This document shows positions 2,459 to 51,065 of a stretch of DNA of 64,000 nucleotides, one piece after another. The stretch is from Thermoanaerobaculia bacterium (GTDB taxonomy: Bacteria > Acidobacteriota > Thermoanaerobaculia > Gp7-AA8), in contig DASPMO010000039.1 in assembly GCA_035627015.1 (NCBI GenBank), positions 11,470 to 75,469 of the forward strand, given 5' to 3'. A program made the translations under genes and the position numbers. Below the pieces are notes generated by a model. It had not been told where the DNA came from. It did no database searches and saw only the letters and a program-made list of their open reading frames with translations. Within the stretch, counting starts at the first letter, position 1; every line of letters begins with the position of its first letter.

Positions 2459-2546
2459 GGAGTCCGGCTTGTCCGCTCCTGCGAAGGGCAGTACCATCCT
2501 TCCTGCCGTCCAACAGGATCTCCGTCGGAAAATCGTGAGCAGCCGC

Positions 2547-12445
<9,899 letters not shown>

Positions 12446-12473
<28 letters not shown>

Positions 12474-42232: not shown

Positions 42233-43603
42233 TTGATGGCAGTATTCCTTCCTTCGAGGACACGATTGACCGCCCTGAGTACGCCAGCGCGAGTTCCCGA
42301 TAGCGGACGGGCGGCTGAAGAGCCGTTTCCACTGCGCTGGAGCGCGACGCAGACACGGTTGCTGCGCGAGCGCGCGGAAGGATCCGGGCCGGCGCCCCTC
42401 GTGACCGCGATCGAGCTCGACGGACCGGTCGATGCCGCGCGTCTCGACCAGGCTTGGCAGGAGCTCCAGTGGCGGCACCCGTTCCTCCGCGTGCGTCTCG
42501 GCCCCGACGGCCCGTTCGCAGCGCCGGAAGTGCGTCCGCTGCTGCGCGCGAACATTCCGGGGAGCAGCCCGGGCTTCCGCACGGACGCGGCGCAAGTGCT
42601 CGCGGCGGCGGCGCGGCCCCGCGACCTGGCCACGGAAGGTCCGGCGGACGCGGCGTGGATCCGCACCGGCCCCGAGGCGGGACTGCTGATCTGCAGCGTC
42701 GACCATCTCGCCACCGATGGCTGGTCGTTCGGCCTCATGGCGCGGCAGTGGGGCGAGCTCTATCGCACGCCGGGCGCGGGCGCCGTCGTGGACCCGAGCA
42801 GCGTCATCGCCCGATACGACGAGCCTGAGCGCGTTCGCGCCCACGGCATCGCCGTCCGGAACCTTGCCGAGGAGCTCGCGGGCGCACAGCCGTTTCCGCT
42901 GCCTCCATCGCAGAGCGGATGGGCGCTCCTGCACGTCGACCTGCCGCTCGACATCGCCGGCGGTCTCCGCGCCCGCGCCACCCGCGACCGCTCGACGCCG
43001 TTCGCTCTCGCGCTGGCCGCCCTCGGCCGCGCGCTGGCGGCCGAGCATGGGGTGACCGACCTGGTCGTCTCCACGCATGTCGCCAACCGCTCCGTCCCGC
43101 AGAGCGAGCAGGTCGTCTGCGCGCTCTACAACACCGTCCCTCTGCGCATCTCCGCCAGGAGCGGCGACGATCTCGAAGGATGGGTTGCCTCGGCGAAGCA
43201 GGCCTCGCTGCGCGCACTGCAGCGGCAGTCGCTGCCGTTCGCCACGGCGCGGCAGGTGCTGGCCGGGACGCTCCCCTCCGACGCGTTCCTCCGCGTCATG
43301 ATCAACTTCGATCAGCACCCGTTCCTCGGGCTCTCTCTCCCCGGCGTCGAGATCCACGAATCGGCGGCATGGAGCCCGCAGCGGCTCGGGACGGGCCTGA
43401 ACGCCCCCTGGTATTCCACTTCCGACCGGCCGTGGCCGGCCGGCATCACCGTATCGTTCCGCGAGACCTGGGATTGCCTGCAACTCTACATTCATTACGG
43501 AGCGGAGCTGGGCGATCGCGCTGCATTGATGCTGCTGGGCCGGGTGACCGAAGGCCTGGCACTGCTTACAGACTCCCGACAGGAGGAAAACGGCCATGGC
43601 TGA
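42233..43603 (+). CDS. Stand-alone condensation-domain protein (variant DHxxxDG)
   Basis: PLRWSATQ, RHPFLR, CSVDHLATDGWSF, STPFALALAA, STHVANR...LYNTVPLR, QSLPF. Confidence 0.8.
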   Translation: MMAVFLPSRTRLTALSTPARVPDSGRAAEEPFPLRWSATQTRLLRERAEGSGPAPLVTAIELDGPVDAARLDQAWQELQWRHPFLRVRLGPDGPFAAPEVRPLLRANIPGSSPGFRTDAAQVLAAAARPRDLATEGPADAAWIRTGPEAGLLICSVDHLATDGWSFGLMARQWGELYRTPGAGAVVDPSSVIARYDEPERVRAHGIAVRNLAEELAGAQPFPLPPSQSGWALLHVDLPLDIAGGLRARATRDRSTPFALALAALGRALAAEHGVTDLVVSTHVANRSVPQSEQVVCALYNTVPLRISARSGDDLEGWVASAKQASLRALQRQSLPFATARQVLAGTLPSDAFLRVMINFDQHPFLGLSLPGVEIHESAAWSPQRLGTGLNAPWYSTSDRPWPAGITVSFRETWDCLQLYIHYGAELGDRAALMLLGRVTEGLALLTDSRQEENGHG

Positions 43604-44576
43604 CTCGAGAGCTCAAATCATCGCCCAGGCACTGATCCAGATCGCGCAGACCCTGACCCCCGAAGGAGGACAGGACGAGGCCAAGGAGCGCGGTGGTCGC
43701 GGCGGCGGTGCGGCCGCGGCCGCGACGCGCGATCCGGAGAGCGTGGCCTCCCTGATCCGCGCACTCTGCCCCGCCACGTCCACGGCCACGCGCCCGACCG
43801 ACGTCGCGGAGCTGATCCGCGCGCTCTGCCCGGTGGGCGACACCCGCGCCAATCCGACCGCCACCGCGCGCCTGATTCAGGCGCTCTCGCCGGCGGTCGA
43901 GACGGGAGGACGCGAGCGCATGCAGCAGCTCATCGCCGCGCTCTGCCCGATCGAGCCGGGCTCGAACGTCTCGCGATTCGCCGAACAGTTCGCAGCCGGC
44001 GACACCGCGGCGATGGCGGAGGCCGTCCAGAGCGGCGCCGAGGCTGATGCCACCGTTTCCGCCGCAACGCTCACCCCGCAGCAGCGCCTGGCGGCCGACG
44101 TCTTCCGCGTACTCTCGCCGGTCGACCAGCAGCCGCGGACCGACGTCAAAACCGCGGTCGACTTCCTGCGTGCGCTCTGCCCGGCGGACCGTCCGCCGGA
44201 CGAAGTGGCGGGCCTCATCGCCGCGCTCTCGCCGGCCGCCGACAAGACCGCCGGCTCTCCCGACGAGGCGGTCGCGTTCATTCGCGCGCTCTGCCCCGCC
44301 GGGGACGTACCGGCCACCGACGTCGCGCAGATTGTCCGCGCACTCTCCCCCGCCGCCGATCTGGAGGCGAGGCGCACCGACAACGTCGCGCAGCTCGTGC
44401 GGGCGCTCTGTCCCGCGGCACCGACCGAGTGGGGCGGGCTGGTTCGCGCGCTCTCGCCGGCGCACGATCCGGCGACGCGGCCAACCGACGTTGCGGAGCT
44501 CATTCGCCAGCTCTCTCCCGCGATCGGGCCGGTGGAAGTCATCCGCACGCTGTCGCCTGCGGGTCCGGGGCAATGA
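43596..44576 (+). CDS. Unknown protein with 13 tandem [LFIV][IVLF]xxL[C/S]P repeats
   Basis: GGAGG RBS, start overlaps upstream stop; motif LIRALCP/LIAALSP recurs 13 times with variable P/A/T/D-rich linkers; repeat visible at DNA level (gcgctctgcccg / gcgctctcgccg). Confidence 0.85.
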   Translation: MADSRAQIIAQALIQIAQTLTPEGGQDEAKERGGRGGGAAAAATRDPESVASLIRALCPATSTATRPTDVAELIRALCPVGDTRANPTATARLIQALSPAVETGGRERMQQLIAALCPIEPGSNVSRFAEQFAAGDTAAMAEAVQSGAEADATVSAATLTPQQRLAADVFRVLSPVDQQPRTDVKTAVDFLRALCPADRPPDEVAGLIAALSPAADKTAGSPDEAVAFIRALCPAGDVPATDVAQIVRALSPAADLEARRTDNVAQLVRALCPAAPTEWGGLVRALSPAHDPATRPTDVAELIRQLSPAIGPVEVIRTLSPAGPGQ

Positions 44577-44597: not shown

Positions 44598-46286
44598 ATG
44601 CCGAAAGTCAGTGACTACGTAGCCGATTTCCTGGCCATCAACGGAATTCATCTCGCCTTCGAGCTGTCGGGCGGGATGATTTCCCATTTGCTCGACTCGT
44701 TCGCGGCGCATCCGGACATCCGCGTGATCTCCATGCACCACGAGCAGTCGGCGTCGTTTGCCGCCGAGGCGGTGGGACGGCTGACCGGCCGCCCCGCCGT
44801 CGCCCTCGGGACGTCCGGACCGGGCGCGCTGAACCTCGTCAGCGGCATCGCCAGCTGCTACTACGATTCCGTCCCCGCCCTCTTCATCACCGGCGACGTG
44901 CAGACCTACATGGAAGCGGGACAGAAGCCGCTGCGCCAGTTCGGGCTGCAGGAATGCCCATTCCCCGCCGTCGCCGCGCCGATCGCCAAATCCGCGGTCT
45001 CGGTCAAGCGTGCGGCCGACGTCCCCGCCGCCTTCGAGCAGGCGCTCCTCACGGCCGTCAGCGGCCGTCCCGGCCCGGTGGTCATCGAGCTTCCCTTCGA
45101 CGTGCAGGGACAACCGCTGAATGCGCAGGCGGCGGCGGTGGCGCTGCCTCCCCCGCAGCCTCCCGCCGATGACGCGGTGACGGTGGCCAACGAGATCCTC
45201 GCCTCCGCGCAGCGTCCGCTGATCCTCGCCGGTGGCGGCGTGCGCTCTCCCGCGGCCAGCGACGCGCTGCGGCGCTTCGCCGAGAAGACAGGAGTGCCGC
45301 TGGCGACGTCCATTGCCGCGCTGGACGTCGTGCCGGCCGGTCACCCGCTGCGCGTCGGACTGGTGGGGATGTACGGCACGCGCGCGGGAAACCTGGTCAT
45401 GGCCGAAAGCGACGCCATCCTGGTCGTCGGCAGCCGCCTCGACGCGGGACTGATCGGGGCCGACACGAGCGCGTGGGAGCGTCACAAAACGATCGTGCGC
45501 GTGGACTGCGACGCGGGCGAGCTGTCGGCCCGCCTGCGCAATGCGAAGCAGTTCCACGCCGACGCCGGAGCGTTCCTCGCCGCGGCGCTCGCGAGCGCGC
45601 CGAACGGGGTCCACGCCGAGTGGCGCGCGCGCGTCCAGCAGTTGAAAAGCGAGCACCCCGACACCGCCGAGCATGCGACCGGAGCAGACATCAATCCGAA
45701 CCTGTTCATGCATCAGTTGTCCGCGGGGTCCGGCGACGCCGTCGCCTACGTCGTGGATGCCGGGCAACACACCTGGTGGTCCGCGCAGTCGCTGCAGCTC
45801 ACCGGGTCGCAGCGGTACCTCGGCGCCACGGGCTTGTGGGCCATGGGATCGTCGCTCCCGGCCGCGATCGGCGTCGCCCTGCACACGGGCCGCCCCGTCG
45901 TCGCCATCGCGGGCGACGCCGGCATCCAGCTCAACCTCCAGGAGCTCCACGCCCTCATCCGCTACCAGCTGCCGGTCAAGATCGTGGTGATCAACAACCA
46001 CTGCCACGGCATGGTGCGCCAGTTCCAGGACGAGTTCTTCGACCGCCGGCGCCCGTCGACCGTCTGGGGCTATAGCCCTCCCGACTTCACCGCCGTCGCC
46101 GCCGCCTACGGAATCCGCTCCGCGGCCGTCGACCGCCAGGACGACGTCCCGGCCGCGGTCGCGCGGATGTGGGCCGATCCCGCCGCCCCCTTCCTGCTGA
46201 ACGCGACGATTCCGCTCGACATCAACGTCTCCCCCTACGTCCCCCTCGGGCGCCCACTCAGCGGGATGGTTCCGCCGCGCCCCTGA
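44598..46286 (+). CDS. ThDP-dependent enzyme, acetolactate synthase large-subunit-like
   Basis: MHHEQSASFAAEA, TSGPGALN, GRPGPVVIELP, PLILAGGG, GDAG...VINN ThDP motif, GMVRQFQ. Confidence 0.92.
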   Translation: MPKVSDYVADFLAINGIHLAFELSGGMISHLLDSFAAHPDIRVISMHHEQSASFAAEAVGRLTGRPAVALGTSGPGALNLVSGIASCYYDSVPALFITGDVQTYMEAGQKPLRQFGLQECPFPAVAAPIAKSAVSVKRAADVPAAFEQALLTAVSGRPGPVVIELPFDVQGQPLNAQAAAVALPPPQPPADDAVTVANEILASAQRPLILAGGGVRSPAASDALRRFAEKTGVPLATSIAALDVVPAGHPLRVGLVGMYGTRAGNLVMAESDAILVVGSRLDAGLIGADTSAWERHKTIVRVDCDAGELSARLRNAKQFHADAGAFLAAALASAPNGVHAEWRARVQQLKSEHPDTAEHATGADINPNLFMHQLSAGSGDAVAYVVDAGQHTWWSAQSLQLTGSQRYLGATGLWAMGSSLPAAIGVALHTGRPVVAIAGDAGIQLNLQELHALIRYQLPVKIVVINNHCHGMVRQFQDEFFDRRRPSTVWGYSPPDFTAVAAAYGIRSAAVDRQDDVPAAVARMWADPAAPFLLNATIPLDINVSPYVPLGRPLSGMVPPRP

Positions 46287-46351
46287 AGCCGCGCGTCCTG
46301 CTTGCGACAGGAAACGCACGACGGCAGAATACGCGCTCGAAAGGACCCATC

Positions 46352-47068
46352 GTGGCAAACAGCAAGCTTGCGGCACCCCAGCTCGTCCTGCACAGCCGGA
46401 TGATCTATACCAGTTGGATCCCCGAGGATCCGGACGCCTGCGCGCGCCTCCTTCCGCCCGCCCTGCGGCCGGCGGCCAACCGGGCCGTCTACATGAATCA
46501 GTACGTAGTGGACCGGGCGGAGCAGACCACCGGCTTCGGGGCGTACTCGCTCACCTACCTGGGACTCGACCTGGCGGACCTGTTCGCGCCCGACGGGGTG
46601 ACCCCGGCGCGCTTCTTCACGCACTACTTCAACTCGTCGGAGACCGTGCGGGAGTACGTGACGGAGCGCGGCGTCCCGGCGTCCCCCGGCTCGACCGTGC
46701 TGGAGGTGGAAGGCGGAATCGCCACGGCGACCACCAGCGTGGACGGCACCCCCATCATCCGCACCCGGGCCCGGGTGGGCGAGACGGCCGACCTCGTGCT
46801 GGCCGGCCACCTCCGCTACGTGACCCGGGTCGGCAACCGGCTGATCGCCGGGAACTACCCCTACATCGGCGAGCTGGCAGGCACGTTCGAGGTGCAGTCC
46901 ATCGAGTTCCTCGCCCCCGACCACCCGGTATACGCCCTCCGCCCGGCCAGCCCGCTCCAGGTGATCGCCGGCTCGTCCTTCTACGCCCCGCGCGACTCGT
47001 TCGTGTACCCCGGCGGCGAGGAGGACCTCGGTCCGGCAGAGGGCGGTGGCCAGGGGCACCGGCCGTAG
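46352..47068 (+). CDS. Acetoacetate decarboxylase (ADC) superfamily-like protein (GTG start inferred)
   Basis: Size, D..ACARLLPPALRP N-terminus, FGAYS..YLG, beta-rich pattern; canonical Schiff-base Lys not confirmed. Confidence 0.55.
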   Translation: MANSKLAAPQLVLHSRMIYTSWIPEDPDACARLLPPALRPAANRAVYMNQYVVDRAEQTTGFGAYSLTYLGLDLADLFAPDGVTPARFFTHYFNSSETVREYVTERGVPASPGSTVLEVEGGIATATTSVDGTPIIRTRARVGETADLVLAGHLRYVTRVGNRLIAGNYPYIGELAGTFEVQSIEFLAPDHPVYALRPASPLQVIAGSSFYAPRDSFVYPGGEEDLGPAEGGGQGHRP

Positions 47069-47133: not shown

Positions 47134-47215
47134 GGGCCACCTTGAGGATGTGATCGTGGGCGCGGGCGGAGAGGCCGAGGCGCTCGATGGCGGTGAGGAG
47201 CAGGCGCTTCGAGGA
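47134..47215 (-). repeat. Displaced duplicate of the comM/yifB 3' segment (att-like direct repeat of 49557-49638)
   Basis: 78/82 nt identical to 49557-49638; encodes SSKRLLLTAIERLGLSARAHDHILKVA; degenerate similarity continues to about 47110. Confidence 0.9.
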
Positions 47216-47228
47216 CGCCGCGCCGTGT

Positions 47229-48080
47229 TCAGAAGCTGCCGGCGAACTTCTCCGCCGCGACGCTCGCCGTTTCAGGGAAGTATTTCCGCAGTGCGACAGC
47301 GACCCCGTTTTCGGTATTCGAGAGAGTGACCTCGCGCGCGACGTCCAACGCAGCGTCCGAGGCATTCGTCGGGACTACGCTGTGGCCGACGGAGCGCAAC
47401 AGGTCCAGATCGTTGTCGGAGTCTCCAAAGGCCAAGACGCGATGCGCTGCGATGCCGAGGCGGCTCAGGACACAGTCCACTCCTGCCCATTTACCCGCAG
47501 CCACACTCACGAGCTCGATCGCCGTTGGACGGCCACAGGACAGCCGCACGTCGGTTCCGTAGCGCTCGTACAACGCATCCCGGACCGGGTCCAGCTCGTC
47601 TTTTTCTCCACGGATCATGATTTTGTGCGCGGCGAGGCCGGCCCCGGCCCAGCTCTCGAGATGGCGGAGCGGTGAGCCGACCGTGGGCCATACCTTATTA
47701 CCCCGGATCTCGCGACGCGCCCAGTAGTCGATCCGGTTCACTACCCATTCGTCTTCTCGAAAGATCCCGACGTGCGCTCCGGCGGCCAAAGCGAGATGCA
47801 CGATCCCGGAACTGGTTTCGCAGGACAGACACTGGTCGACCAATGTGGCATCACCGTCGAGTACCAGCGCGCCGTCGAGCGCCACGATGGTGTTCAGACA
47901 CCCGAGTTGCTTCTGAAGCGGTCGAATGGCACAGGGCATCCGGGAGGAGGCCAGCAGCACATCCACCCCGAAGTCACACCTGACGCGTCGGATCGTTTCG
48001 ATCGTTACTTCCGACAGCTCCTTCTCATCGTTCAGGAGCGTACCATCGATATCAGCCACGATCAGGTCGAAAGCCATCAT
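47229..48080 (-). CDS. Cof-type HAD-IIB phosphatase
   Basis: ADIDGTLL (DxD), LASSR, LDGALV, AAGK, FGDSDNDLDLL, PTNA, NTENGVA. Confidence 0.92.
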   Translation of the reverse strand: MMAFDLIVADIDGTLLNDEKELSEVTIETIRRVRCDFGVDVLLASSRMPCAIRPLQKQLGCLNTIVALDGALVLDGDATLVDQCLSCETSSGIVHLALAAGAHVGIFREDEWVVNRIDYWARREIRGNKVWPTVGSPLRHLESWAGAGLAAHKIMIRGEKDELDPVRDALYERYGTDVRLSCGRPTAIELVSVAAGKWAGVDCVLSRLGIAAHRVLAFGDSDNDLDLLRSVGHSVVPTNASDAALDVAREVTLSNTENGVAVALRKYFPETASVAAEKFAGSF

Positions 48081-48086
48081 GAGTCC

Positions 48087-49418
48087 TCACACGACTACCA
48101 GCCTGCTGGGCGTGTCGGAAAGCATATTTCTAACCAAGTCCAGAATCGGCTTGGAGGCGGGTCCAGCGGTTAGAATTTCCAGCCTCTCGGAAAACCGGGC
48201 AAAGAGCACCTTCTGCTGCACCTCGAACTTGGAAGGGTCGACGAGAAAGACCTTTCGTTCAGCGGCTTCCAGCAGAGCACGTTTCGCCGGCACTTCGTGG
48301 TCGTGCGTGATGGCGAAGCCTTCACGTTCATACAGCCCATTTGTACCGAGAAACGAAATATCGAGCCGCCCGGGGGGAGGAGAGATCACCGATACATCCG
48401 ATTCTCTCCAGGGAATCACCGTCAAGGACCTGGGTCTGCACCAGCCGCCCATCAGAATGACTCGGCAACGAACGCTGCTGCCGCCGGCTTCGAGTTCGCT
48501 CAAGGTCTCCAGAAGGTGGTACGCGACCGGAACCGAGTTGGTGAAGATCTCCAGATCATTGATGGATCCGGCACGGATCTCGTCGCTGAGATACGCCGCA
48601 AGCGCGAGCGTCGTCGAGCCGCCGTCGATCCCGATGCGATGTCCGGATCGTACAAGCCGTGCCGCCGCTTTGGCGATCGCCCGTTTTTCACGCGCGAAGA
48701 GCGTCCGCTTGTAGAAATTGCTCTCCTTTGCGAGATACACATGCTCGGCATCGAAGTAGATGCCGCCGAGCACGTGACTGCTCCGCAGCCGCTGCAGCAG
48801 ATCGAGCGTGGCCGCAGCATCGATCCAGGCGAGCTCCGGATACTGCCGCAGTTCCGTTGCGAGTTGCTCGATCGTGAGCGGGTTCTCGAGCCTGTGCGAG
48901 TGAACGACAGTCCGCACGTGTTCGGCCATCGAGACGGCGAGTGCCGTCGCGGCATCGAACGCGGCAAACCGCGATCGCGATGTAGGGCTGCGAAAGCCGT
49001 CGCGAGCGAGCAACCCGAAGAGCTCCATCGTCAGTTCGTCAACGAAGCCTTTGACCGCTGTGTCATGGAACTTGTAGCAGGAAAGATACTTACGGTCCGG
49101 CAACATCTCGTCGATGAGTTTTTTGCCCGCTGGCTCGACGACGATCGGAAGGAGATAGGGACGCGCGAGCGTCTTTTCCTGCTGCAGCGCCCAGGAGACC
49201 TCCTTGCGCACCCAATCCGACTTGGCCGCGCTGCGGTCGACGATCAGCATGACGAGATCGCAGCCGCTCTTGATTGCTTCCTCAAGCCGCGCTTCGACTG
49301 AGTCGCCGATGCGCAGTTCGTGGTCGTCGAGCCGTAACTCGACGAACGGCGGCAGCCTTTGCCGAATCTGCTCAATGAAGGACTTCCGTCCTCCACTATG
49401 GCTGACGAAGATCCTCAT
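48087..49418 (-). CDS. TIR domain - winged helix-like - DeoR C-terminal sugar-phosphate sensor fusion
   Basis: N-term IFVSHS...SDWVRKEV (TIR with catalytic-position Glu); C-term EKRAIAKAAARLV..GHRIGIDGGSTT, IFTNS, LMGG, DISFLGTNG, KRALLEAAERKVFLVDPSKF (DeoRC). Confidence 0.88.
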   Translation of the reverse strand: MRIFVSHSGGRKSFIEQIRQRLPPFVELRLDDHELRIGDSVEARLEEAIKSGCDLVMLIVDRSAAKSDWVRKEVSWALQQEKTLARPYLLPIVVEPAGKKLIDEMLPDRKYLSCYKFHDTAVKGFVDELTMELFGLLARDGFRSPTSRSRFAAFDAATALAVSMAEHVRTVVHSHRLENPLTIEQLATELRQYPELAWIDAAATLDLLQRLRSSHVLGGIYFDAEHVYLAKESNFYKRTLFAREKRAIAKAAARLVRSGHRIGIDGGSTTLALAAYLSDEIRAGSINDLEIFTNSVPVAYHLLETLSELEAGGSSVRCRVILMGGWCRPRSLTVIPWRESDVSVISPPPGRLDISFLGTNGLYEREGFAITHDHEVPAKRALLEAAERKVFLVDPSKFEVQQKVLFARFSERLEILTAGPASKPILDLVRNMLSDTPSRLVVV

Positions 49419-49458: not shown

Positions 49459-50973
49459 TCATCGGAAGTACCCCCGATCCAGCGCCCGGTACTGTACCGC
49501 CTCGGCGAGGTGCGCCGACTCGATGCGCTCGCACCCGGCCAGGTCGGCGATCGTGCGGGCCACCTTGAGGATGCGGTCGTGGGCGCGGGCGGAGAGGCCG
49601 AGGCGCTCGATGGCGGTGAGGAGGAGGCGTTTCGAGGAAGGGTCGAGCTCGCAGTGCTTGCGGAGCTGGCGCGTGGTCATGTCCGCGTTGGCTTTGCGGA
49701 AGCGCTCGCGCTGGATCTGCCGCGCCGCTTCGACGCGCGCGCGGATGGCCGCGGACGGCTCGCCCGGCTCGACGGACGCAATTTCGTCGGTGCTGAGTGC
49801 GGCGACCTCCACCTGCAGGTCGACGCGGTCGAGGAGCGGGCCGGAGATCTTGGCCAGATAGCGCGCGATCCGCGTCGGAGTGCAGATGCACTCGCGGCGG
49901 GCGTCGTTGAAGAAGCCGCAGGGGCAGGGATTCAGCGCGGCGGCGAGCGTGAAACGCGCCGGGAAGGTGAGCGTGCGCGCGGCGCGGGCGATGGTCACGT
50001 GGCCGTCTTCCAGCGGCTGGCGCATCGCTTCCAGCGTCTCGCGGCGGAACTCGGGGAGCTCGTCGAGGAAGAGCACACCGTGGTGCGCGAGGCTCACCTC
50101 CCCCGGCCGCAGCGGCGTGCCGCCGCCGGCCATGCCGGCGGTGGAGATGGTGTGGTGCGGCGCCCGGAAGGGGCGCCGCGCGAGGAGTCCCGCGCCCGTG
50201 GGGAGCACGCCGGCGACGGAGTGGATCTTCGTCGTGACGATGGCCTCCTCCGGCGAGAGCCTCGGCAGGATGGTGGGGAGACGCCGCGCGAGCATCGTCT
50301 TCCCCGATCCCGGCGGGCCGATCATCATCACGTTGTGGCCGCCCGCCGCGGCCACCTCCAGGGCGCGCTTGGCCTGGGCCTGGCCGCGCACTTCCGCGAA
50401 GTCGGCGTCGTCGGTATGCTCCGCGCCGGCGGTGGAGATCGTCGGGGCGATGATCGTCTCGCCGCGCAGGTGCCGCAGCAAGGCCGGCAGGTGCGGTACG
50501 CCGATCACACGCACGCTGTGCACGGCCGCGGCTTCGTTCGCATTGGCCGCCGGGACGATCAGCTCGCGGATGCCCGGCTCGGTGGCCAGAGCGGCGGAGA
50601 TGGCGAGCGTGCCGCGGATCGGGGTCAGGGTGCCGTCGAGCGAGAGCTCGCCGACGAACACGCGCCCGGCGCTGTCGGCCTCGTGCAGCATCTCGAACGC
50701 CTGGAGCATCCCCACGGCGATCGGGAGGTCGAAGCCGGAGCCCTCTTTCCGCACGTCGGCCGGAGAGAGGTTGACGGTGACCGAGCGCCTCGGCGGGTAG
50801 AACCCGCAATTGACCATGGCCGAGCGCACGCGCGAGTACGACTCGCGCACGGCCGGGTCGGGCAGGCCGACCAGCGTGAACCCCGGCTGCTGCGCCTGCC
50901 GGGCGTCCACCTCGATGATGATGCGTACTGCTTCGATTCCGAGCGTCGCCGCGCTCCATACTTTGGATAGCAT
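49459..50973 (-). CDS. comM: YifB/ComM Mg-chelatase-like AAA+ ATPase
   Basis: VGLPD.AVRES, KEGSGFDLPIA, GELSLDG, GPPGSGKTMLARR, RAPHHT, LFLDELPEF, ALNPCPCG, SGPLLDRVD, LSARAHDRILKVARTIADL. Confidence 0.95.
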   Translation of the reverse strand: MLSKVWSAATLGIEAVRIIIEVDARQAQQPGFTLVGLPDPAVRESYSRVRSAMVNCGFYPPRRSVTVNLSPADVRKEGSGFDLPIAVGMLQAFEMLHEADSAGRVFVGELSLDGTLTPIRGTLAISAALATEPGIRELIVPAANANEAAAVHSVRVIGVPHLPALLRHLRGETIIAPTISTAGAEHTDDADFAEVRGQAQAKRALEVAAAGGHNVMMIGPPGSGKTMLARRLPTILPRLSPEEAIVTTKIHSVAGVLPTGAGLLARRPFRAPHHTISTAGMAGGGTPLRPGEVSLAHHGVLFLDELPEFRRETLEAMRQPLEDGHVTIARAARTLTFPARFTLAAALNPCPCGFFNDARRECICTPTRIARYLAKISGPLLDRVDLQVEVAALSTDEIASVEPGEPSAAIRARVEAARQIQRERFRKANADMTTRQLRKHCELDPSSKRLLLTAIERLGLSARAHDRILKVARTIADLAGCERIESAHLAEAVQYRALDRGYFR

Positions 50974-51065
50974 GGTGTGCGACCCGCCACGGAAATCCTT
51001 CCCCGGCGGGGAGTATCCCTCGGAGGCAAGAGAGTCGCAAGACTTCTCCATGGAGGAGAGCTTTC

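Follow-up and report, generated by a model that had tools for sequence, protein, structure and literature searches.

What might a bacterium do with a protein that joins a TIR domain to a sugar-phosphate sensor of the DeoR type, encoded directly ahead of a phosphatase gene? The question is raised by two minus-strand genes in a 64,000-nucleotide (nt) stretch of DNA from a Thermoanaerobaculia bacterium (assembly GCA_035627015.1, contig DASPMO010000039.1, positions 11,470 to 75,469), called the window below. The first gene encodes a fusion of a TIR domain, a degenerate winged helix-turn-helix (wHTH) and a DeoR C-terminal (DeoRC) domain, and the second a Cof-type HAD phosphatase. We found the pair to be a real, rare and horizontally mobile two-gene module whose architecture, apparently undescribed, adds a new sensor and a metabolic accessory enzyme to the known kind of sensor-fused TIR effector. 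The fusion protein may be a TIR NADase gated by a phosphosugar whose level the partner enzyme controls.

Architecture of the gene pair

Both open reading frames (ORFs) were recovered exactly where a preliminary description of the window had placed them, as a two-gene operon with a 6-nt gap, and a GAGGA-like Shine-Dalgarno sequence of the HAD gene overlaps the stop codon of the TIR-DeoRC gene. The pair was also described as more AT-rich than its flanks, which agrees with a GC content of 0.605, compared to 0.684 for the window and 0.713 for the adjoining comM gene; at third codon positions the values were 0.73-0.74 for the pair and 0.89-0.96 for neighbouring genes. Scans of the island that holds the pair gave no sigma-70 promoters and a single terminator-like site, located on the wrong strand. 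The features of the locus are as follows.

48087..49418, minus strand: TIR-wHTH-DeoRC fusion gene, 443 amino acids (aa), the putative sensor and effector (ORF, Pfam, AlphaFold2 model, Foldseek)
48999..49418, minus strand: TIR domain, residues 1-140 (Pfam, AlphaFold2, Foldseek, conservation over 50 members)
49200..49202, minus strand: codon of E73, candidate catalytic glutamate (invariant in 50 sequences of 22-86% identity; codon checked)
48723..48971, minus strand: long helix and degenerate winged helix, residues 150-232 (AlphaFold2 secondary structure; kept in caspase-fused relatives)
48090..48719, minus strand: DeoR C-terminal ligand-binding domain of the RpiA/eIF2B fold, residues 234-443 (Pfam, Foldseek, invariant residues, DeoR alignment)
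47229..48080, minus strand: Cof-type HAD-IIB phosphatase gene, 283 aa (Pfam Hydrolase_3, solved relatives, motifs)
48045..48053, minus strand: HAD motif I, D10-I11-D12, nucleophile and general acid/base (motif alignment, codons checked)

The fusion protein carries, in order, the TIR domain, the degenerate winged helix and the DeoR-type sensor domain. Pfam placed TIR_2 on residues 3-115 (E 1e-13, exceeding its cut-off), DeoRC (PF00455) on residues 243-412 (E 2e-26, 93 bits against a cut-off of 31.8) and Hydrolase_3 over the entire 283-aa HAD protein (E 1e-42). The wHTH was recovered from an AlphaFold2 model built on a 50-sequence alignment (mean predicted local distance difference test score 90.6), completing the architecture that had been proposed. 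The model consists of the TIR domain (1-140), a disordered linker (142-147), a long helix with a winged helix (helices 152-172, 183-190 and 201-213, wing 220-229) and an alpha/beta domain (234-443).

Foldseek matched the TIR domain to AbTir (7uxu; template modelling (TM) score 0.72, root-mean-square deviation 3.3), and also to the TIRs of SPARTA and plant RPP1. The SxWVxxE glutamate noticed earlier is present within the motif S67-x-W69-V70-x-x-E73, and E73 aligned with the glutamate of the ‘W..xE’ motif in AbTir and PdTIR, their catalytic residue. Eight positions of the domain are conserved over 50 family members (F4, S6, H7, D31, G38, S67, W69 and E73), and only W69 and E73 are invariant, down to 22% identity. 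With its catalytic signature intact, the TIR domain is expected to be an active enzyme and would probably cleave NAD+.

At the other end of the protein, residues 234-443 matched the C-terminal domain of E. coli DeoR (7l6l) with a TM score of 0.86, in addition to ribose-5-phosphate isomerase A and eIF2B subunits. Six residues of this domain are invariant over 50 members (K245, D265, G267, R328, K379 and K397), and K245, D265, K379 and K397 are common to the fusion protein and E. coli DeoR in an alignment; as judged from these sequences, the ligand domain keeps the conserved basic residues of the predicted pocket.

These four residues are generic ligand residues, and the wHTH fold stands at its canonical position ahead of DeoRC. 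Both points would suit ordinary metabolic regulation, in which a DeoR-type factor, responding to a sugar phosphate, keeps its own small operon repressed and the TIR serves only as an extra oligomerisation or NAD-sensing domain. The rest of the protein fits such a regulator poorly. The wHTH is not N-terminal, the TIR domain coming first, and was undetected by sequence, with no HTH_DeoR (PF08220) match even at E 0.1. Throughout the family the recognition helix and wing have a net acidic character (mean charge -2.2), the wing tip carries D223 in 80% of the sequences, and the arginine pair of the ‘TIRRD’ motif of canonical DeoR proteins is missing from the recognition helix. The protein thus has the DeoRC domain of a DeoR regulator and lacks the N-terminal HTH_DeoR with a basic recognition helix, and it did not reach any of the NCBIfam equivalogs (GlpR, AgaR, DeoR, SrlR, UlaR etc.; best 57 bits against a cut-off of 300). 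DNA binding of the DeoR kind, implied by the preliminary description, is doubtful because the HTH_DeoR match and the arginine pair are absent and the net charge of the recognition helix and wing is negative; a structural transducer is the likelier role for the wHTH. The invariant TIR glutamate, in turn, argues for an enzyme and not a scaffold.

The partner enzyme and the nature of the ligand

NCBIfam groups the 283-aa protein with Cof-type HAD-IIB sugar phosphatases, and its nearest solved relatives are the sugar phosphatases YidA, BT4131, SupH and PfHAD1. HAD motifs I-IV (DxD, S/T, K, GDxxxD) show no variation among 10 partner HADs, nor does the cap motif W..RE.R, and the protein has the motifs and the C2B cap that define HAD-IIB. 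A partner enzyme adjoins the full-length fusion gene in all 17 distinct loci, so that the linkage is obligatory among them, with the following distribution.

Cof-type HAD: 12 of 17 loci
HAD_2-type HAD: 2 of 17 loci (the Eubacterium locus, counted here, carries PfkB too)
PfkB kinase (FruK/LacC-type phosphosugar kinase): 3 of 17 loci

The stop and start codons of the sensor and partner genes often overlap, and in one locus (L034) the order is inverted, with the HAD gene upstream of the fusion gene. The identities of partner and sensor to the respective window proteins rise and fall together (r = 0.95). The HAD is a dedicated, co-inherited partner, and its proposed role as operon partner is borne out.

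The kinase partners bear on the ligand. They are nearest to 1-phosphofructokinase, tagatose-6-phosphate kinase and Pfk-2 (E 1e-21 to 1e-40), all of which act on sugar monophosphates, and far more weakly related to ribokinase. Both partner types could consume ligands of one kind, resembling a hexose monophosphate, and molecules of this sort are what FruR, LacR and other canonical DeoR-family sensors bind. Because the alternative partner is a FruK/LacC-type kinase, the ligand of the sensor is more likely a hexose monophosphate than deoxyribose-5-phosphate, the example named in the preliminary description; we found no evidence for deoxyribose-5-phosphate as the specific ligand and dropped it.

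Mobility, relatives and genomic setting

The preliminary description had placed the pair in a comM-bounded island, and the borders proved sharper than first described. An 82-nt direct repeat of 95% identity (47134-47215 and 49557-49638) lies on either side of the gene pair and duplicates part of the 3’ end of comM, far beyond chance.

49459..51051, minus strand: comM (Mg-chelatase-like ATPase), the insertion target (Pfam Mg_chelatase, ChlI and Mg_chelatase_C; repeat geometry)
49557..49638, no strand: left island border, a repeat copy in the 3’ end of intact comM, 95% identical to 47134-47215
47134..47215, no strand: right island border, the direct-repeat copy in a comM 3’ fragment that is displaced and frameshifted and follows closely on the HAD gene

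The last ~100 nt of comM fall within the repeat-bounded segment, and weaker similarity continues for ~28 nt beyond the right copy, with a 1-nt indel, before it is lost. Given this repeat geometry, the two genes and a replacement comM end make up a ~2.4-kb insertion in comM. The pair are the only ORFs between the repeats, so the island has no other cargo. The ORF list shows no recombinase gene between the repeats, and tblastn of the window with integrase, resolvase and transposase queries found nothing, although this was a weak test with few queries. The segment thus has the target-end direct repeats and the deviant composition of an integrative island and no integrase or recombinase of its own. 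Low GC is not peculiar to the window, as the cassette lies below its flanks in 13 of 14 loci; together with the comM repeat, this gives the cassette a horizontal-transfer signature. Convergent on the comM remnant is a 299-aa ORF (46169-47068, plus strand) whose match to the acetoacetate-decarboxylase family is weak (E 0.008) and whose real start is uncertain.

The family is very rare. A word-indexed search of 5.8 billion clusters gave just five full-length relatives, and HMMER, run exhaustively over 1.84 billion representatives, gave 61 matches below 1e-30, ~50 of them full-length. Seven lineages contributed further members through pattern scans of genomic and metagenomic sequence: Abditibacterium, Ignavibacteriae, Pyrinomonadaceae, Yoonia vestfoldensis DSM 16212, Planctomycetota, Hyphomicrobiales and a Eubacterium. 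The search for loci used a 10-sequence alignment, the 50-sequence alignment being too diverse, and the metagenome scan returned mostly ordinary DeoR regulators with only three more full-length members. The Yoonia vestfoldensis pair (L010 10001-12172), a 32%-identical TIR-DeoRC with a Cof-type HAD, has a GC content of 0.46 against 0.62 in its flanks and lies ~1 kb from the contig end. This cultured carrier is a convenient experimental source, making the idea directly testable.

Further genes lie beside the cassette in some loci. Next to a 44%-identical relative, a gene for a type I phosphodiesterase/nucleotide pyrophosphatase (PF01663; L093 5810-7087, plus strand), found in this locus only among the 17, overlaps the end of the HAD gene to form a three-gene operon. 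Beside a 59%-identical relative stands a divergent nadC (L003 8698-9513, minus strand), encoding quinolinate phosphoribosyltransferase of NAD biosynthesis, which may be a coincidence. The Eubacterium cassette (L013 11350-13302, plus strand) is a four-gene operon of TIR-DeoRC, HAD_2, a Mac/hexapeptide sugar O-acetyltransferase and PfkB, followed by a PDC-S01 candidate defence gene.

The sensor is not tied to the TIR domain. The helix-wHTH-DeoRC module (query residues ~150-443) was also found behind Peptidase_C14 caspase domains in three proteins (P0055, P0076 and P0068) and, in P0071, behind an N-terminal domain of no assigned family with a faint nitrilase-like match. The genes next to these keep the pattern of the TIR cassettes: a Cof HAD gene follows and overlaps P0055, with no TIR in the operon, and an overlapping PfkB gene follows P0071. 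The caspase fusion P0076 was recovered on two contigs. On one (a 2.5-kb Logan contig) an EACC1 gene lies upstream and overlaps its start; on the other (L086 1-17707) it stands among two tyrosine integrases, insertion sequence transposases and a group II intron reverse transcriptase. In two papers, EACC1-caspase pairs are treated as conflict or defence modules linked to a variety of sensors (PMC7159879, PMC12642450), with no mention of a DeoR-type sensor in either. The TIR subfamily is likewise not tied to this sensor, being fused elsewhere to HAD domains, a LacI-type periplasmic-binding-protein domain, GAF ligand-binding domains and a STAND ATPase. One TIR-HAD_2 fusion (P0149, in L088 170-7331) immediately follows genes for a 1073-aa type IIG restriction-modification enzyme and a GHKL (HATPase_c) ATPase, together with a small ORF, which makes for a defence-island-like setting.

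Defence genes were found within 7 kb of the cassette in four of eight distant loci (L012, L011, L008 and L013), in line with the defence-island association that the preliminary description had raised.

L012, 16261-19034, minus strand: type I CBASS, with a cyclase (CD-NTase; 6e-144) and a patatin phospholipase (3e-108)
L011: Ppl-like protein (3e-47)
L008: PDC-M29A, a PADLOC candidate defence gene (1e-63)
L013: PDC-S01, a PADLOC candidate defence gene (1e-99)

In the first of these, a metagenome-assembled genome of Hyphomicrobiales, the type I CBASS lies ~4 kb from a TIR-DeoRC/PfkB pair, and a mad8-like ATPase lies on the other side. The earlier anti-phage reading had been set against the possibility that the homologues are repressors in sugar-catabolic operons, and this was seen in no locus: no sugar transporter, phosphotransferase system (PTS), aldolase, isomerase or catabolic gene stands beside the pair in any locus with called genes. 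The genes flanking L013, the most ‘metabolic-looking’ locus, had no PDB relatives, and a catabolic operon is not demonstrable there.

Elsewhere in the window, a 326-aa ORF (43596-44576, plus strand) contains 11 copies of an A-L-[C/S]-P motif ~15-21 residues apart, with no tandem repeat at the DNA level. It sits between a 456-aa ORF (42233-43603) and a 562-aa ORF (44598-46286), and may encode either a repeat protein or, for the gene cluster next to it, a multi-core peptide precursor. The 3334-aa ORF at 2469-12473 (plus strand), with the further long ORFs that follow it up to ~46 kb, suggests a large biosynthetic gene cluster of the megasynthase type to the left of the island.

Known systems, the proposed switch and its rivals

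The closest known counterparts of the N-terminal half are the bacterial TIR NADases (AbTir, PdTIR and BtpA-type proteins, and the SPARTA, Thoeris and CBASS effectors), which share its fold and hallmark residues, including the catalytic glutamate, and whose assembly-dependent action may be expected here as well. The fusion protein differs from them in having no Argonaute, SAVED, SLOG, Macro or STAND partner, in carrying a DeoR-type sensor on the same polypeptide, and in that its sole accessory gene encodes a phosphatase or kinase. The separate TIR generator and separate effector of Thoeris (types I-IV) are absent, only the HAD gene accompanying the fusion gene; ThsB_TIR scored 14.7 bits, under its cut-off, the Thoeris type III model scored 13.5 against 220, and PADLOC gave no Thoeris match. 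As for the SAVED-TIR proteins of CBASS and Pycsar, the fusion protein has no sensor domain of that kind, the island has no cyclase gene, and the match to SAVED_TIR in PADLOC is confined to the TIR part (residues 3-94, E 2e-7). The gene content of the island places the fusion protein outside Thoeris, CBASS, Pycsar and SPARTA, whose defining partner genes are absent.

DeoR-family regulators (DeoR, GlpR, FruR, LacR, AgaR) have the DeoRC domain after a wHTH and often stand beside PfkB (fruR-fruK, lacR-lacC), but they lack the N-terminal TIR or caspase and the degenerate, acidic HTH, and the cassette lacks their catabolic and transport genes. The sensor relatives that carry Peptidase_C14, one of them with EACC1, recall the EACC1-caspase and type IV Thoeris caspase modules, whereas the window protein carries a TIR domain and no caspase. 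We considered the caspase relatives as type IV Thoeris effectors, but the paper on that system gives the C-terminal domain only as of unknown function, and no link can be claimed. The preliminary description knew of no named system with this architecture and expected none from PADLOC. PADLOC and NCBIfam returned only weak, sub-threshold matches to the TIR domain, and our search of the open full-text literature (subscription-only papers lay outside it) turned up no TIR-DeoR, caspase-DeoR or TIR-HAD system. The ‘DeoR’ matches in the literature were author names or strain genotypes and were set aside.

We propose that the cassette encodes a phosphosugar-gated TIR NADase with its ligand under the control of the partner enzyme, serving as a conflict or abortive-infection module, and we give this proposal about an even chance of being correct. 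The C-terminal DeoR-type domain, with the degenerate winged helix, would bind a phosphorylated sugar, and occupancy would shift the oligomeric or conformational state of the protein through the wHTH. This shift would toggle the N-terminal TIR between an inactive and an assembled, NAD+-cleaving state, with the ligand either permitting or preventing assembly. The partner phosphatase or kinase would consume the same phosphosugar monophosphate and so set the threshold or reset the switch. The output may be growth arrest or death that limits phage spread, either as anti-phage defence or as a related stress-suicide or dormancy response. The logic in which the sensor gates the effector and the partner controls the ligand, put forward in the preliminary description as a ligand-gated TIR with the HAD as threshold control, is supported by the swapping of effectors, the TIR-HAD fusions and the defence neighbours in half of the distant loci; the choice of deoxyribose-5-phosphate as ligand is the part that did not survive.

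Several observations weigh against this proposal. The window and the three closest relatives of its cassette (L001, L003 and L004) have no recognisable defence neighbours, which confines the defence-island association to the more distant loci, and the neighbourhood statistics rest on few loci because the family is so rare. No relatives were found on viral contigs. The HAD scored 124.7 against the NCBIfam Cof-subfamily cut-off of 137, slightly under it. Ordinary DeoR genes are followed by PfkB in L044, L048 and L075, and since this is the classical fruR-fruK arrangement, the partner could reflect metabolic ancestry.

The last point leads back to ordinary metabolic regulation, the alternative that survives best and which we nevertheless consider unlikely. 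A regulator of sugar metabolism would be at home next to a HAD that resembles housekeeping sugar phosphatases, in a layout that resembles fruR-fruK and, for the close homologues, outside defence islands. It would not be expected to travel in a cassette with a horizontal-transfer signature, to have its sensor fused to caspases and placed beside EACC1, or to stand apart from every transporter, PTS, aldolase and isomerase gene, as it does in the loci with called genes, and the state of its winged helix speaks against it as well.

We regard as improbable a self-contained loop, in which the TIR makes an ADP-ribose-type product that is sensed by DeoRC, as such or as ribose-5-phosphate, in a feed-forward or feedback manner and is degraded by the HAD and, in one locus, by the nucleotide pyrophosphatase. 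The closeness of the DeoRC fold to ribose-5-phosphate isomerase A, the pyrophosphatase gene overlapping the HAD gene in L093, the nadC gene beside the cassette in L003 and the existence of TIR-HAD fusions would all agree with such a loop. The pyrophosphatase, however, is confined to that one locus, and the PfkB partners are phosphohexose kinases and not ribokinases. The caspase-fused versions moreover keep the sensor and the partner with no TIR in the operon, so the sensed ligand cannot in general be a TIR product. Least probable is an addiction cassette of the toxin-antitoxin kind with no role in phage defence, in which the TIR protein is the toxin, the HAD its metabolic antidote, and the pair persists since its loss is harmful: the tight, translationally coupled linkage and the mobile, GC-poor, repeat-flanked island with no other cargo would suit it, but the partners of opposite chemistry (kinase and phosphatase) and the dedicated ligand domain are better suited to signal sensing than to plain neutralisation, defence genes lie near several of the loci, and the same sensor domain has been kept with different effectors.

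In the bacterial TIR systems known so far, the trigger is a phage protein, a nucleic acid or a nucleotide second messenger. If the phosphosugar-gated NADase acts as proposed, central-carbon or nucleotide-sugar metabolites can act as signals of infection or stress in bacteria, and sugar-phosphate sensing would be an additional type of sensor in the defence toolkit. More tentatively, with the chances somewhat short of even, the helix-wHTH-DeoRC module may represent a new class of immune sensor that reads a phosphosugar and not a phage protein, nucleic acid or cyclic nucleotide, and that drives interchangeable death effectors (TIR NADase, caspase and possibly nitrilase) while a phosphatase or kinase sets the threshold. 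Two eukaryotic proteins offer a parallel. In animal SARM1, a metabolite-gated TIR NADase, the ARM domain senses nicotinamide mononucleotide and NAD+, and the protein forms octamers through its SAM domains; the likeness would be one of function only, a small-molecule sensor in cis controlling TIR assembly and NAD+ destruction, with no homology outside the TIR. The eIF2B alpha/RpiA-fold sensors share the fold of DeoRC, and Foldseek matched 7kmf, entitled ‘Sugar phosphate activation of the stress sensor eIF2B’, although eIF2B is a eukaryotic translation factor with no effector enzyme fused to it. Bacteria would then possess, in this cassette, a counterpart of metabolite-gated SARM1 and of eIF2B as a sugar-phosphate sensor, and mechanistic work would gain a simple two-gene, ligand-switchable NADase.

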